From: an uncultured Chthonomonadaceae bacterium
GTDB lineage: Bacteria > Armatimonadota > Chthonomonadetes > Chthonomonadales > Chthonomonadaceae
DNA length: 64,000 nucleotides
Reading direction: 5' to 3'
Assembly (NCBI GenBank): GCA_963835065.1
Contig: CAWIEK010000002.1
Coordinates: forward strand, 1 to 64,000
This document shows positions 12,764-41,095 of the stretch, in pieces (the first letter of the stretch is position 1; every line of letters starts with the position of its first letter). The translations under genes and the position numbers were made by a program. The notes under the pieces were generated by a model that ran no database searches, was not told where the DNA came from, and saw nothing but the letters and a program-made list of their open reading frames with translations.

Positions 12764-12838
12764 GTTTCGACCCTTCCGGGCATAAATTCTCGAAAGATAC
12801 AGGTTCAGTATAGCCAGAGCGATTCCCTATTGTCAAGG
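12764..12838 (-). promoter_or_regulatory. Repeat unit copy 1: sigma70 promoter + 33-nt hairpin unit
   Basis: Minus strand TTGACA-N18-TATACT followed by CTTTCGAGAATTTATGCCCGGAAGGGTCGAAAC. About 80% identical to 16025-16098. Confidence 0.75.
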
Positions 12839-15076: not shown

Positions 15077-15492
15077 TCAGGGTTCCTCTGGCCCATTTAA
15101 TGCCTTGCGCATCCATGCCGTTAGTTCCTCCTTGCTCATTTTGCCTGCGGCAACCTCCATTGTGACTTTTTCCAGTTCTTCCTGCGGAGGCAACTGCTCT
15201 ATGTCTACGCCGTTTTGATCCAGAAATACGAGGGCGGACAGAACGCCCGCGCGTTTGTTGCCGTCTGCAAAGGCGTGGTTGGCGGTGATGTGAAAGAGAT
15301 ACGCGGCGGCTTTTGCGGCCAGTCCGGGATGCAGCACAACGCCGCCCCATTGCTGCTGCGGCATGGCAACCGCCGACTCCAGCAATCCCATGTCGCGTAT
15401 TCCTGCCAGTCCGCCTTCCTTTTGTATGGTGTCGGCATGAATGGCAATCACGATGCTGTATCGAGAAAACGAATGGCGTGTTCGTCCGGCAT
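15077..15492 (-). CDS. doc: Doc/Fic toxin (frameshift near 15458, probably a sequencing error)
   Basis: G.RD.GLLESA..P and Fic motif HAFADGNKR. Likely true start MPDEHAIRFLD. Confidence 0.85.
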
Positions 15493-15515
15493 GTTCTGCT
15501 CGTCTCCCTGCACCT

Positions 15516-15743
15516 TCATTTGGCAAGGTTTTCAAGCATCTGCTTGTAGCGAGGCCGTAAGCGGTTCAGCGAGGCCGTGACTTCTTCGGGCGCAATCTCC
15601 CGGTTGACGGGCGTGACAATCAGCGAACCGTTGCTGACGCTAACCTGTAGCGGCGTGTCGGCGTCTATGTTCAGCATCTCCATAATCGTCTTATCCAACA
15701 CCAACGCCTGACTGTCCCCATGCTTTTGCAATGTTTTTATCAT
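15516..15743 (-). CDS. AbrB/MazE-family antitoxin
   Basis: KTLQKHGDSQALVLDK..L.I..DTPL..S...LIVTP; directly upstream of doc. Confidence 0.85.
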   Translation of the reverse strand: MIKTLQKHGDSQALVLDKTIMEMLNIDADTPLQVSVSNGSLIVTPVNREIAPEEVTASLNRLRPRYKQMLENLAK

Positions 15744-16024
15744 CGGGTTTCCCTCCGGTTCCTTTGCTTCTTAATCAACGTTTGGCAGGGTAGGAGACAA
15801 ATGATTCTCTTTCCTCTTCCAGCAAAGCGTCCCAATCCTCTATCTTCAGGTCAGGAAAAGACAGCGCCTGTATGCCATCCTCGTCAACGATCTGGAAATG
15901 AGCAGACTGCTCGCCGGAAGTATCAGGGGCAGAGGTAACTATCCCTTCCTTTGGTTTATTGAAGGCAGGCCCATTCGATTGTGTTAGGGTTGAAGCGGGT
16001 TGAATACCCTCAAAGAGAGCCATC

Positions 16025-16098
16025 GTTTCGATCCTCATGGGCATAAACACACGAAAGCTATAGGTTCAGTATAGCCAGCGGATTTCCTGTTGTCAAGG
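16025..16098 (-). promoter_or_regulatory. Repeat unit copy 2: sigma70 promoter + 33-nt hairpin unit
   Basis: Minus strand TTGACA-N17-TATACT followed by CTTTCGTGTGTTTATGCCCATGAGGATCGAAAC. Confidence 0.75.
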
Positions 16099-16260
16099 AT
16101 TTCACCGCGAAAGTCAGAGCCGGCACATCTAAAATGCGCAACTCCTGTCCCGTCGTGGTAAATTCGCCACCAGTCTGCGCCTGCTCCTTCCCCATGATTG
16201 CCAAAGCCAGAAAGAATACGCAAAAAAGTGAAAACAATCTGGTGAAAAAGCAGTAAAATA

Positions 16261-16288
16261 TGAACCTTCTCTGCGTTTGCGTCGTCTA
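16261..16288 (+). promoter_or_regulatory. ECF sigma-type promoter
   Basis: TGAACC-N16-CGTCTA, matching the AAC/CGT ECF consensus (B. subtilis SigW/SigM/SigX type). Confidence 0.7.
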
Positions 16289-16370
16289 AAATGTATACAT
16301 ACGTCTACTAATCAGCCAGGTGGCGGGACGTTGAGAGTTAGGAGTTCCTAACAACCTGACAATCTAACCC

Positions 16371-16535
16371 GGAAGGGAGGTGCTGGAAGATGCCTGTACC
16401 CTCTCCCCGTTCGCCCTGACGCTTACGAGGCCGCGACGCCTCTCTCCTACAACCAGACACAACGAGACATCGGGCTGGAAGCGCTGCATTGCCAAGATTT
16501 CGACGATGACTCTACATATTTCTTTTCCTTTTTAG
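16371..16535 (+). ncRNA. Candidate structured RNA/leader, copy 1
   Basis: 114-nt core (16407-16520) has 6 mismatches to 40776-40889. SD plus micro-ORF MPVPSPRSP*, hairpins and a pyrimidine tail. Confidence 0.55.
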
Positions 16536-16657
16536 ACCGCCTCTGCCCTGAAAGTGTGGCAGCAGTGCGCCGTATGCGGTAAGATGAAAATAGCAACATC
16601 GGCGGGAACAGAGCGTCACAAGGCAGTGACATGGGCGATGAGGAGCAAAGCGGAATT

Positions 16658-19600
16658 ATGCCAGTTCGTAAGCAGGGAAAAGTTCTGATGTTTCTGATGG
16701 GCGCGACGCTTGCCGGAATGATGGGAAGCGGCGCGGCGCAAAATGCCGTTCGGAAACCGGAACTCAATTCAAAACAAAGCGTGGCTACTGTTCGCGGCGT
16801 GGATTACAACCGCGATGTGCGGCCTATTTTGTCGCAGCATTGTTTCAAGTGTCACGGGCCGGATGAAGGGCAACGGCAGGCGAAGTTGCGTTTGGATCAG
16901 CGGACAGGCGCACTCGCGCTGTTGAGCAGCAGTCGGCGGGCGGTTGTGCCGGGAAAGCCGGAAGAAAGTACCCTCGTGACGCGCGTTTTCTCGCATGGCG
17001 CGGACATCATGCCGCCCGCGTATGCCAACAAGCCGCTTTCCGACAAAGAAAAAGATACGCTGAAGCAGTGGATTGCGAACGGCGCGGCGTACAGTCCGCA
17101 TTGGGCGTTCGTGCCACCCCACGCCGTTTCCCTGCCCCGCGTCAAGAACACCGCATGGCCGCGCAATCCGATTGACTATTTCGTTCTTGCCCGTTTGGAA
17201 CAGCAGGGTTTGAAACCCTCCCCGCCCGCTGACCGCTACACGCTTGTTCGCCGCGTGTATCTGGACCTCATCGGCCTGCCGCCCACGCCCGCAGAAGCCG
17301 ACGCTTTCCTGAAAGACACGCTCTCCGAACGCTTACGAAAAACTGGTAGACCGATTGCTTGCCAGTCCGCATTATGGCGAAAAGTGGGCGCGGAAGTGGC
17401 TGGATCGTGGCCCGCTACGCCGATACAAACGGCTACGAGAAAGATCGTCCGCGCTCCGTATGGCCGTACCGGGATTGGGTTATCAACGCCCTGAACCATG
17501 ACATGCCGTTCAATCAGTTCACGATTGAGCAGATCGCGGGCGACATGCTGCCCAACGCCACCCTCGACCAGAAAATCGCAACCGGCTTTCACCGCAACAC
17601 GATGCTCAACGAGGAGGGCGGCATTGACCCCCTCGAATACCGCTTTTACTCCCTTGTTGACCGCACAGCCACAACCGGAACCGCGTGGCTCGGCCTGACG
17701 GTGGGCTGCGCCCAGTGCCACACCCACAAGTTCGACCCGATCACGCAAAAAGAGTATTACCGCTTCATGGCGTGTCTGGACAACACGGAAGAGCCGACGC
17801 ATGGACGTGACCACGCCGGACATAACGGCCAAACGCAACGCAATCGAAGCGCAGGCGCAGGCGCGAACCGCGAAACTGGCCGAACAGTTCCCGCCCGAAA
17901 GCGATGTGCAATGGTCTGCCGCGCCCACTTCCACAATCACAACCGCGTCCGGCGCAACCGGAGAACGGCTGCCGGACAATTCGCTGCGCTTGTCGGGCAT
18001 AAACCCGGATACGGACACCTACACGGTCACGCTGGACAGCAACCAGTCGGAAGTCAGTCAGGTAAAACTGGAAGTTCTGCCCGATGCTTCGCTTGGCAAT
18101 GGCGGGCCGGGACGAACGCCGCACGGCAATTTTGTTCTGACGGAATTCAGCGCGAACGTTGCGCCCAAAGAGGCTCCTGACAAAACCGTTCCGGTGAAAT
18201 TTGTTCGCGCGGCTGCCGATTTCGCGCAGGACGGCTTTCCCGCCCAAAACGCGATTGACGGCGACAGTCATACGGGTTGGGCGATTGCAGGGCAGGGCAA
18301 TTGGAACGTAGCGCGAACCGCCACCTTCACGCTCGACAAGCCCCTGCATTTCGCAAAAGGCGGCAAATGGACGTTCCGCCTGGAACAAAACTACGGCGGG
18401 CATCACACGATTGGACGCTTCCGGCTCAGTTTGGGACATGACACAGCGGATTCGCGCCCGCTGGAACTCCGGCGGCGCGAACATCTGGATAAGAAGTTTG
18501 GCGCGTGGCTGAATCAGACGCAGGCCAATGCCGTTCACTGGCGCGTCCTGCGTCCCATCAAGGCCACGAGCAACCTGCCCCTGCTGACGGTGCAGGACGA
18601 CAATTCCATCTTCGTCAGCGGCGACATGACCAAGCGCGACGTGTACGACCTTGACTTCCGCAATCCTGTCAACGCGCCCATCACCGCCATCCGGCTGGAA
18701 GTTCTGCCGGATGAGCGCCTGCCGCAGCATGGGCCGGGGCGCGTGTTTTACGAGGGCGGCGCGGGTGATTTCTTCCTGAGCGAACTGACCGCAAGCGCCA
18801 ACGGCAAAGCCGGTTTCGTTCCGCGACGCCACGCAAAACGGCGGCAATGCGGCGCAATCCGCGATTGACGGCGAACCCCTGACGGGCTGGAGCATCGGCG
18901 GACGGCAGGGCGAGCCAACGGTTGCTGTTTTCCGCCTGTCTTCCCCGCTCAACGCAAGCGCGTTTTCCCTCCGCATGGTGTTTGAGCGCTACTTTGCCGC
19001 CGCTTTGGGCCGCTTCCGCATTTCCGTCACGTCTGACACGCCGCCTAACCTGCAAGCCCTGCCGCCCGAAGTGGAATCCGCCCTGCTCCTCTCCACTCCG
19101 CAACGCCCGCCTGCGCAACAGACAACATTACGCAATTACTTCTTGTCCATCGCGCCGGAATTGCAGCCGGAGCGCGAAGCAAATCGCCCAACTGCGCCGA
19201 ACCATGCCCGCGTATCCCACCGCGCTTGTCTTTGCCGAACGCCCGACGAACAATCCGCGCGTTACGACGGTGCATCACCGGGGCGAGTACCTGCAGCCCA
19301 AAGAAGCCGTGACGCCCGGCGTACCCGCGATTCTCCCCTCCCTCCCTGCCAACGCGCCCGCCAACCGCCTGACGTTCGCCAAGTGGATCGCCTCGCCCGA
19401 AAACCCGCTCACCGCCCGCGTCGTCGTCAACCGCCAATGGGCCGCCCTGTTCGGCAAAGGTCTGGTCAAAAGCGTAGACGATTTCGGCTATCAGGGCGAC
19501 CCGCCCACGCACCCGGAATTGCTGGACTGGCTGGCGAACCGCTTCGCTGCAAAGGATGAAGGCGGAAGGATGAAGGATGAAGCCAATCCTCATTCATCCT

Positions 19601-20358
19601 TCATCCTTCATCCTTCATCCTTTTCTTGTGGCTGGCGTCTGAAAGCGCTGCACCGCCTTCTCGTGACGAGCGCGACGTATCGGCAATCTTCGCAGCTGAC
19701 GCCCGACTTGATGCAGCGCGACCCGGAAAACAAATGGCTGGCGCGGAGTTCGCGCGTTCGCCTGGACGCGGAACTGGTGCGCGATTGCGTTTTGACGGCG
19801 AGCGGGCTGCTTTCGCCCAAAATCGGCGGACCGAGCGTGTTTCCGCCGCAGCCGCCCGGCGTTACGTCTGAGGGCACGTATGGCCCACTCGCATGGAACG
19901 TCAGCATGGGCGAGGATCGGTATCGGCGCGGCCTGTACACGTTCAGCAAGCGCACCGCCCCGTATGCCATGTTCACGACGTTCGACGCTCCGAGCGGCGA
20001 AGCGTGTGTCGCCCGACGCGAAGTTTCCAACACGCCCCTGCAAGCCCTCACGCTGCTCAACGATCAGGTTTTTGTGGAAGCGGCGCAGGCGTTGGGCAAA
20101 CAAATGGCCGCGCAGCCGGGAACCGAAACCGAGCGCATAACCCTGCTGTTCCGACGCTGCCTGACGCGCCCGCCCACAACTGAAGAAACCAATCTGCTGC
20201 TCAAGTTCATCAATGCGCAGAAGGAACGGCTTGCAAAGAAAGAACTGGATGCGGCTAGGATTGCCGGGCCGGGTGACGGTGACATAAACGCCCGCGCCGC
20301 CTGGACGTTACTTGCCCGCTCTCTCCTGAACCTGGATGAGACGATTACGAAGCATTAG
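16658..20358 (+). CDS. Planctomycete cytochrome c + DUF1549 (PSCyt2) + DUF1553 (PSD1) protein; several frameshifts
   Basis: [67 protein letters not shown] and NTPLQAL.LLN, spread over frames. Confidence 0.9.
19552..19622. repeat. In-frame heptamer inverted repeat inside the DUF1553 domain
   Basis: (GGATGAA)n ... (TTCATCC)n encodes [24 protein letters not shown]. Confidence 0.85.
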
Positions 20359-40563: not shown

Positions 40564-40675
40564 AAGGGAATTATGTCCGAAGGACATTCGGCGGAACGCC
40601 ATACAGCGAAGCACTTCAGTGCGTCGCCCCAACGCACAAAAATACTGAAAAAAAGCCAAACAACGCGAAAAACAT

Positions 40676-40703
40676 TGAACCCTTTGCCCAACGCAATCGT
40701 CTA
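40676..40703 (+). promoter_or_regulatory. ECF sigma-type promoter
   Basis: TGAACC-N16-CGTCTA. Confidence 0.7.
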
Positions 40704-40743: not shown

Positions 40744-40904
40744 GAAGGGAGGTGCAGAGCCATGTTTCACCCCTCCCGTTCGCCCTGACGCTGCGGAGGT
40801 CACGACGCCTCTCTCCTACAACCAGACACAACGAGACATCGGGCTGGAAGCGCTGTATTGCCAAGATTTCGACGATGACTCTACATATTCTCTTTCTTTT
40901 TTAG
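40744..40904 (+). ncRNA. Candidate structured RNA/leader, copy 2
   Basis: See copy 1; micro-ORF MFHPSRSP* at 40762-40788. Confidence 0.55.
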
Positions 40905-41095
40905 GGCGCTCTCAGGACTTACAGGCCAACAATCACCCGCCGCCAACCACCAATCACCAACCAAAAGAGGAACCTTTCCTGCTAACGGCGAACGTTAGGG
41001 AACGTCTATCGTATAGATTGTTTCCGCACACGACCTGAATCCCATGCCCGTTGTTCTCATGCGTTCCGCCCGATGCGCCGAAAGGAAAGACCCGA

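Follow-up and report, generated by a model that had tools for sequence, protein, structure and literature searches.

The window, that is, the whole stretch of DNA analysed here, comprises 64,000 nucleotides (positions 1 to 64,000 of contig CAWIEK010000002.1, assembly GCA_963835065.1) from an uncultured Chthonomonadaceae bacterium. Its genome is referred to as G000, and two congeners, belonging to the same genus, as G001 and G002. The window contains two copies, A and B, of a compact unit consisting of a promoter motif, a mini-ORF, a hairpin and a conserved 3' domain, with the following features.

16115 to 16550, plus strand: ISAs1-type MITE shell of 436 bp enclosing copy A, the target duplication no longer being recognisable here
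16115 to 16134, plus strand: left terminal inverted repeat of the shell
16531 to 16550, minus strand: degenerate terminal inverted repeat at the right end of the shell
16261 to 16288, plus strand: copy A promoter motif TGAACC-N16-CGTCTA, which we take to be of ECF type, with phased A-tracts just upstream
16302 to 16308, plus strand: second -10-like motif of copy A, just inside the predicted transcript
16373 to 16382, plus strand: copy A Shine-Dalgarno sequence AAGGGAGGTG
16390 to 16419, plus strand: copy A mini-ORF, MPVPSPRSP-stop
16427 to 16442, plus strand: copy A hairpin, beginning 7 nt past the stop
16464 to 16512, plus strand: copy A 3' domain, with an outer stem (16464-16472 / 16504-16512) around the conserved loop
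16480 to 16494, plus strand: invariant 15-mer AGCGCTGYATTGCCA of copy A
16513 to 16533, plus strand: conserved YATA of copy A, then a pyrimidine/U tract, the likely 3' end; no canonical terminator called
40676 to 40703, plus strand: copy B promoter motif, presumably of the same ECF type
40745 to 40754, plus strand: copy B Shine-Dalgarno sequence
40762 to 40788, plus strand: copy B mini-ORF, MFHPSRSP-stop
40796 to 40811, plus strand: copy B hairpin
40833 to 40902, plus strand: copy B 3' domain and pyrimidine tail, with stem 40833-40841 / 40873-40881 and 15-mer 40849-40863

An earlier note, made from the letters of this DNA alone, had singled out both copies, and the six features it listed agree with our own inspection. 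The motif TGAACC-N16-CGTCTA is present in A and B, and in each the arrangement AAGGGAGGTG-N7-ATG opens the mini-ORF given above. The 114-nt core differs at exactly 6 positions between them, the hairpin reads GAGGC/GCCTC in copy A and GAGGT/GCCTC, a G-U variant, in copy B, and the longer stem GAGACATCG/CGATGACTC is present with one A-A mismatch and a pyrimidine tract next to it. The proposed pairing of the Shine-Dalgarno sequence with a C-rich tract is possible in both copies, but the fold is no better than that of shuffled sequences (z -0.66 and -1.04), and the pairing partner in the predicted occlusion is not the same between species. No intrinsic terminator was called at copy A, where the U tract starts about 6 nt past a weak stem.

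Downstream of copy A lies a planctomycete-cytochrome (PSCyt1/PSCyt2) gene (16631-20358, plus strand) with its ORFs in alternating frames, reflecting either a broken gene or assembly frameshifts. A small antitoxin-like gene, presumably of AbrB type, and a Fic/Doc gene are also found beside copy A (15077-15743, minus strand) and likely constitute a toxin-antitoxin pair. A second repeat, of 75 bp, occurs at 16024-16098 and 12764-12838; on its minus strand, the former copy contains an 11/12 match to a sigma-70 promoter. A palindromic REP-like repeat with 27 genomic sites directly precedes copy B (40570-40635), and at 40969-41012 (plus strand) a GAACC and a GTCTA box are placed a 29-nt hairpin apart, upstream of a phosphoesterase/PQQ-repeat gene.

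The earlier note had spoken of a duplicated element. Both copies are real, far beyond chance, but they are not the products of a duplication: a profile search of the genome revealed 162 full-length copies in G000 (E<=1.8e-14) on 57 of the 71 contigs. The next match had an E-value of 4.5, and half-decayed copies are therefore lacking. Of the 162 cores 159 are distinct. Beyond G000, 46 full and 2 partial copies were found in G002 and 13 copies in G001. The sole broken copies seen are L152 and L153 of G002; one is without its 5' half, where another repeat is found, and the other is degenerate. A near-identical tandem duplication that includes the flank accounts for two copies 1.1 kb apart at G000:C30:36858-38063, and variable runs of heptamers are seen in many G000 copies: CTATCAA within the leader, TTCATCC past the core.

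The distribution is narrow. BLAST identified 3 real carriers among 41 genomes, two more weak matches being unconfirmed, and a covariance model found the family in 3 of 42 family-level genomes and nothing in the other 39. A second covariance model gave matches in 2/67 class-level genomes and 1/5, with nothing in the 65 other class genomes. In 299 other genomes of the phylum the 15-mer had 6 single matches, the same number as its reversed control; the 3 matches in genomes outside the genus and the 12 in metagenomes comprised the motif only, and viral contigs, phages and plasmids gave no family match. No member of the RNA family was thus seen outside the genus in the genomes searched, many of which are incomplete. 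The earlier note had not recognised a known riboswitch, 6S RNA, tmRNA or ribozyme, and in agreement with this no Rfam 15 family matched the window at its gathering threshold. The best match around copy A was at chance level (E 0.87), and nothing was found over the element at four G001 loci. Being self-contained, with an ECF-type promoter, a conserved mini-ORF and no Rfam match, the unit bears out the suggestion of an undescribed RNA family; no description of it was found in the main texts of the open-access literature searched.

The mini-ORF is a regular part of the unit. A GGAGG is found in 156 of the 162 G000 copies and a Shine-Dalgarno sequence together with an ATG in 154, and the 3' end of the G000 16S rRNA reads CACCTCCTTT. 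The distance from ATG to stop is 24, 27, 30 or 33 nt in 155/162 copies, five others being out of frame and two without ATG; the mini-ORF encodes 7-10 residues and ends in proline. The peptide of copy B, MFHPSRSP-stop, is the commonest (51 of 162 copies). In 199 of 204 parsed copies (of 206) the stop is located exactly 7 nt before the hairpin. TGA, TAA and TAG all occur as stops, and a selenocysteine signal was rejected for this reason. The last residue is a proline in 157/157 in-register copies of G000, 34/36 of G002 and 13/13 of G001, specified by all four proline codons, compared with 417 of 4955 ordinary genes (8.4%). The peptides commonly end in x-Pro-stop, as RSP, RPP, HPP, RAP or LPP.

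Judged from this pattern of conservation, the mini-ORF is under selection. The earlier note had opposed a conserved protein frame to conserved base pairs. The frame of the mini-ORF is kept in 155/162 copies, and both helices show compensatory changes with divergent copies included. No long protein frame is conserved, because the indels in the core are not multiples of three, and a longer frame through the core was likewise rejected, the distance from stop to core being 59-62 nt and the indels past the stop ignoring frame.

According to the sections of PMC7246954 cited here, PP-stop and DP-stop are the strongest contexts for stalling and SsrA-tagging in E. coli, and C-terminal proline is more depleted in clades without RF3; the same sections report little effect of a terminal proline on expression in the authors' own Mycoplasma assay. 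RAP in the P site as well as the RxPP and R-HxPP motifs are given as stalling motifs in the portion of PMC10951233 used here. No match to prfC, encoding RF3, reached the cut-off in any of five genomes. As C-terminal proline is not depleted among the ordinary genes of G000, a Pro-stop may not be slow in this organism.

The promoter motif was identified in 153 of the 162 G000 copies. Strict matches to it in the genome number 125, of which 89 are inside copies and 36 outside, against 65 for the reversed control, and a scan with the promoter matrix gave 11 other genes at a score of at least 15, compared with 4 in controls. The sigma factor therefore seems to be largely devoted to this family. The search of G000 for the driving ECF sigma factor named none, and no autoregulated ECF was found among 50 region-4.2 matches over the cut-off. 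That the RNA may be stress-induced, as the earlier note proposed, is suggested by the likeness of the promoter to ECF motifs. The matrix scan also gave a match of score 19.4 at G000:C41:170487, at what we take to be a glycogen-phosphorylase-like gene, and a weak one of score 13.6 at G000:C49:85282-85866, presumably an EF-P-like gene. Most type I copies of G001 and a few copies of G002 are without the ECF motif. A second upstream class, with a ACCTTCTA motif and no GAACC box in front of the same core, is represented by L020, L014, L017 and L008 in G001 and by L037 and L044 in G002; those of G001 show a long hairpin leader and non-ATG starts.

The second -10-like motif is present in 136 of 154 parsed copies, in 117 of them 17-20 nt past the first. 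It recalls sigma-dependent pausing and is a candidate for such a pause. The predicted RNA is 146-318 nt long (median 219), and a run of at least 5 T follows in 114/162 copies.

Folding energy sets the core apart from shuffled sequences in none of the three genomes (mean z 0.44, 0.17 and -0.34), and within the type I copies alone no covariation was detected. Both helices gain compensatory pairs once divergent copies are added. In seven divergent G001 copies a hairpin A-U pair has changed to U-A in five and to C-G in two, and an outer-stem C-G pair to A-U in all seven. Compensatory changes fill 29 cells against 9.6 in shuffles (0/500; 36 sequences), a signal made up of few independent changes between related subfamilies. 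The 15-mer AGCGCTGYATTGCCA is exact in 162/162 copies of G000 and in 13/13 of G001.

A partner for this 15-mer did not emerge. Pairing of the core with 16S rRNA, 23S rRNA and tmRNA was no better than that of shuffles. The 15-mer shares 13 of its 15 bases with tRNA-Gly(GCC) of G000, an in-register match spanning the D stem to the anticodon loop. Mimicry of this tRNA is not supported, the match being not significant, given that 27 of 400 shuffles reach 13 matches and 32-224 of 300 shuffles score as well. In the domain of the 15-mer the anticodon stem cannot form, and there is no T arm and no conserved CCA. ARAGORN predicts 76 tRNA/tmRNA genes in G000, a normal tmRNA among them, and not 162 further ones. 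A type II copy in G001 (L145, G001:C2:4140678-4140804) is arranged head-to-head with a tRNA-Gly(GCC) gene about 470 nt apart, and a cluster of atypical tRNA genes is found at G000:C49, approximately 430500-431800. Sites complementary to the 15-mer are not enriched at start regions (45 per 2000, against 66 mid-CDS); an excess of mRNA targets that was first apparent disappeared with proper controls. Codons 3-7 of secY contain a 12-nt complement to the 15-mer which is kept in G000 and G002. As a target secY is not supported: the site is not kept in G001, and one scoring as well occurs in a genome without the RNA. Hfq is encoded in all five genomes.

Sequence divergence is distributed unevenly over the unit. 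Among the 149 of 162 copies that could be parsed, the per-site difference to the nearest copy is 0.012 (-35 box), 0.030 (-10 box), 0.001 (hairpin stem) and 0.000 (15-mer), as opposed to 0.40 (promoter spacer), 0.29 (7-nt spacer) and 0.58 (3' flank). Neither recent spread nor conversion, taken alone, would produce such a contrast between boxes and spacers, which argues for selection copy by copy.

By the motif test an ISAs1-type shell with both ends surrounds 15 copies, of which one is a doubtful case; among these the 10-bp target duplication matches at 10/10 positions in 5 and at 9/10 in 3. Per-site differences within the 15 shell copies are 0-0.05 for the functional parts and 0.10-0.19 for the MITE ends and interior, the shell thus diverging three to five times more than its cargo. 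Over its first 21 nt, the consensus of the shell is identical to the ends of two PF13808 elements in G002 (L214 and L225); ISAs1-transposase elements of G002 that have the terminal repeat of the shell are without the core, and no ISAs1 transposase was found in G000 (92% complete). A second terminal repeat is located near 41 copies and also flanks DDE transposases, presumably of the IS5 and ISAzo13 families. The remaining 92 of the 162 copies have neither shell.

For 8 of the 29 G002 copies examined (of 46), the adjacent gene has a counterpart in G000 that is likewise accompanied by a copy, identically oriented. As matches to the G000 cores at the same loci, however, the cores of these eight rank only 9th to 111th of 162; old loci therefore remain in place while sequence is exchanged at them. 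The cores follow the genome and not the locus. The promoter travels along with the unit although it lies outside the predicted transcript, which makes retro-mobility unlikely; the two reverse transcriptase genes of G000 are not adjacent to copies. They are found at G000:C49:681456-682613, beside genes we take to be cas1/cas2-like, and at C50:52482-53912.

The copies have no fixed genetic context. The earlier note had placed both copies upstream of genes, and A and B do precede co-oriented genes. This is atypical of the family, in which the next gene is co-oriented in 60/161 cases and on the opposite strand in 101/161 (own gene calls), so the family is not a leader. The 316 neighbours fall into 250 unrelated clusters, and co-orientation with both neighbours is depleted (24 observed against 53 expected, chi-square P 7e-7). 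Copy A is absent from two contigs of related organisms, in which the flanking genes are joined by approximately 100-125 letters instead of approximately 800; as the missing stretch exceeds the shell, the site does not qualify as cleanly empty. One further related contig extends into the promoter of copy A. Copy B appears to be shared, since contigs enter it from both flanks. There was no replication-strand bias (31 to 31), and an action of copies as rearrangement breakpoints found no firm support (3/14 syntenic, against 11/23 control gaps, P 0.17).

Along the chromosome the copies are spaced more evenly than expected. Only 4 of 105 gaps in G000 are shorter than 10 kb, compared with 22 expected, and the coefficient of variation of the gaps is 0.74 against 0.96 (0/1000 draws). 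Short gaps are depleted in both orientations, and a control repeat with 100 sites shows no such depletion. G002 agrees weakly, with 0 of 34 gaps below 13 kb against 3.1 expected (P ~0.03). Contig breaks fall near copies somewhat often (of 142 contig ends, 12 lie within 2 kb of a copy, where 5.7 would be expected) and may hide a few close pairs. Any one of insertion immunity, local redundancy and harm done by closely placed copies could account for the even spacing. With genomes of 13, 46 or 162 copies in the same genus, there is no set dose or spacing.

Taken together, the findings make a translated, stand-alone RNA gene the most likely identity of the unit, with selection locus by locus, transport by IS ends and homogenisation through recombination. 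We consider it quite probable that there is such an RNA at all, under selection, transcribed and translated. The fixed distance between stop and hairpin and the terminal proline point to a ribosome paused on the RNA; granted such an RNA, the balance tips slightly in favour of this mechanism. Each copy would be a gene for an RNA of about 220 nt, presumably transcribed from its ECF-sigma promoter under stress, with a single ribosome loading on the mini-ORF. This ribosome may pause at x-Pro-stop, where release could be slow with RF3 missing from these genomes. A hairpin that begins 7 nt past the A-site codon sits at the mRNA entry channel by the general geometry of the ribosome, and the hairpin of the unit would thus be placed there. 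The invariant 3' domain would then be held beside the paused ribosome. A paused ribosome with the invariant domain next to it is our best reading overall, held tentatively and at slightly less than an even chance. Its purpose might be reversible parking of ribosomes, or bringing a factor bound to the 3' loop to ribosomes, under the condition sensed by the ECF system. The high copy number would provide dose, and the even spacing suggests that each copy may serve its own stretch of the chromosome. The MITE shells would carry the unit as cargo, and recombination between copies would keep the cores species-specific. In its boldest form this amounts to a new class of bacterial RNA, an evenly spaced ribosome trap with an ECF devoted almost only to some 160 genes, which we regard as doubtful. 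Such an RNA would stop the ribosome at the Pro-stop against the hairpin, and possibly a tRNA-anticodon-like loop would lock or mark it. If true, ribosome hibernation would here be RNA-based and dispersed across the nucleoid, captured IS ends having spread it.

Other explanations seem less likely. The unit could be a trans-acting sRNA or a protein sponge with the 15-mer loop as its active part, the ribosome on the mini-ORF serving decay protection or transcription coupling. The conservation of the 15-mer as sequence rather than as pairs, its one variable base that toggles between C and U as expected opposite a G, the presence of Hfq in five of five genomes and the T run of at least 5 in 114/162 copies are consistent with this. 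Complementary sites, however, are not enriched at starts, secY is not supported, and the fixed 7-nt spacer and the even spacing are left unexplained; we consider the sRNA or sponge unlikely. Rather than acting in trans, the unit might be a chromosome landmark with local action, as a boundary formed by a paused RNA polymerase and ribosome or as a protein-binding site. Mutual exclusion within 10 kb in both orientations (weakly also in G002), selection on every copy and the second -10-like motif fit such a role; against it, the genus shows a roughly tenfold range of mean spacing, tolerance of G-U pairs and conservation at the level of codons are characteristic of RNA, and contig breaks may hide close pairs or insertion immunity give the same spacing. 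We would give the landmark a small chance of being correct. A far smaller one remains for the earlier note's proposal of a translation-coupled attenuator, or a leader serving the gene downstream. The Shine-Dalgarno sequence, mini-ORF, hairpin and U tract are attenuator parts, and A and B precede co-oriented genes. The proposal largely fails in the wider comparison, as copies avoid co-orientation with the next gene, their neighbours are of 250 kinds, and related contigs keep the downstream gene without copy A.

The association with IS ends raises the question of whether the host gains at all. A selfish cargo, which helps the MITE, promotes conversion or acts as a CreT-like toxic minigene, is improbable in our view. 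Two kinds of IS ends carry the unit (15 and 41 copies), copy A is absent from two related contigs, and cores follow genome rather than locus, all as expected of a selfish element. On the other hand, functional parts outlast transposon ends at the same loci, 92/162 copies are without a shell, and the G002 ISAs1 elements are without the core; there are no CreT-type tandem rare codons, promoter-dead copies do not accumulate, and addiction cannot act on one of 162 copies. A repeat with no function, uniform through recent spread and gene conversion, would also ride in MITE shells and show concerted evolution. Conversion would, however, homogenise the spacers too, and these differ by 0.3-0.4 per site compared with 0-0.03 in the boxes. 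Frame-keeping indels, compensatory pairs and the lack of decayed copies in G000 further speak against a functionless repeat, which we find hardly credible.

The paused-ribosome reading can be compared with several known systems. Sibling sRNAs such as Qrr, LhrC and Csr/Rsm, and the ECF-driven RybB and MicA, are encoded by stand-alone copies under one sigma factor or regulator. The unit shares with them a U-rich 3' end and Hfq in the genome, but its copy number is more than 10 times higher, the RNA looks translated and no target signal was found, the conserved complementarity to start regions of an Hfq-type sRNA being absent. It is also without the cloverleaf of a tRNA, or a TLD with T arm and CCA end as in tmRNA.

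A closer likeness is found in the CreT toxic RNAs of type I CRISPR-Cas, which, in the parts of PMC8501985 referred to here, have a strong Shine-Dalgarno sequence, a start, an ORF of few codons and a downstream stem-loop. CreT acts through translation and not through its peptide (PMC8501985, same parts), as is proposed here. CreT has two consecutive rare codons and is single-copy in cas loci, where it is repressed by CreA (PMC8501985, as above), whereas the unit has a terminal proline and an ECF-type promoter, possesses a second invariant domain and is dispersed in 13-162 copies. CreT is toxic through the sequestration of tRNA. The last codons of the unit are mostly CGT TCG CCC, with usage of 0.11, 0.21 and 0.39 among the codons for the respective amino acids; tandem rare codons as in CreT are lacking, and synonymous codons are exchanged at mini-ORF ends. 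Furthermore, the copies on 57 contigs are beside unrelated genes, with no cas operon or CreA.

The ends of the mini-ORFs, R/H-x-P or PP, resemble those of arrest peptides such as ApdA/ApdP (RAPP-type), RxPP and R/HxPP, as far as these are covered by the cited portion of PMC10951233. In the unit R-x-P is followed by a stop and not by a Pro/Gly codon, and LPP variants exist. The termination-arrest peptides PepNL (PMC11890864, in part) and TnaC likewise have a short ORF, and the end residues of the mini-ORF could slow the peptidyl-transferase centre at the stop. Promoter- or sRNA-bearing MITEs, such as Correia and QMITE1/2 of Coxiella, also have a non-autonomous IS shell, terminal repeats and a target duplication (PMC10969869, in the excerpt considered). 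Unlike in these, the cargo here has diverged less than its shell and includes a selected mini-ORF; IS ends of two kinds accompany it, and most copies have none. With 92/162 copies outside either shell, the family as a whole is not a MITE.

The unit thus belongs neither to an Rfam family nor to the attenuators, CreT, the RAPP peptides, the Hfq-type sRNAs or the plain MITEs. Among the families tested, nothing corresponds to a bacterial RNA gene of which about 160 intact copies persist, dispersed, selected and spaced apart, and its natural set of more than 200 variants shows which bases matter. The unit would also exemplify the use of transposon ends to raise the dose of a host-selected RNA and, if ribosomes are held, represent an RNA counterpart of hibernation factors. 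By analogy, it seems to work most like CreT or a termination-arrest peptide.
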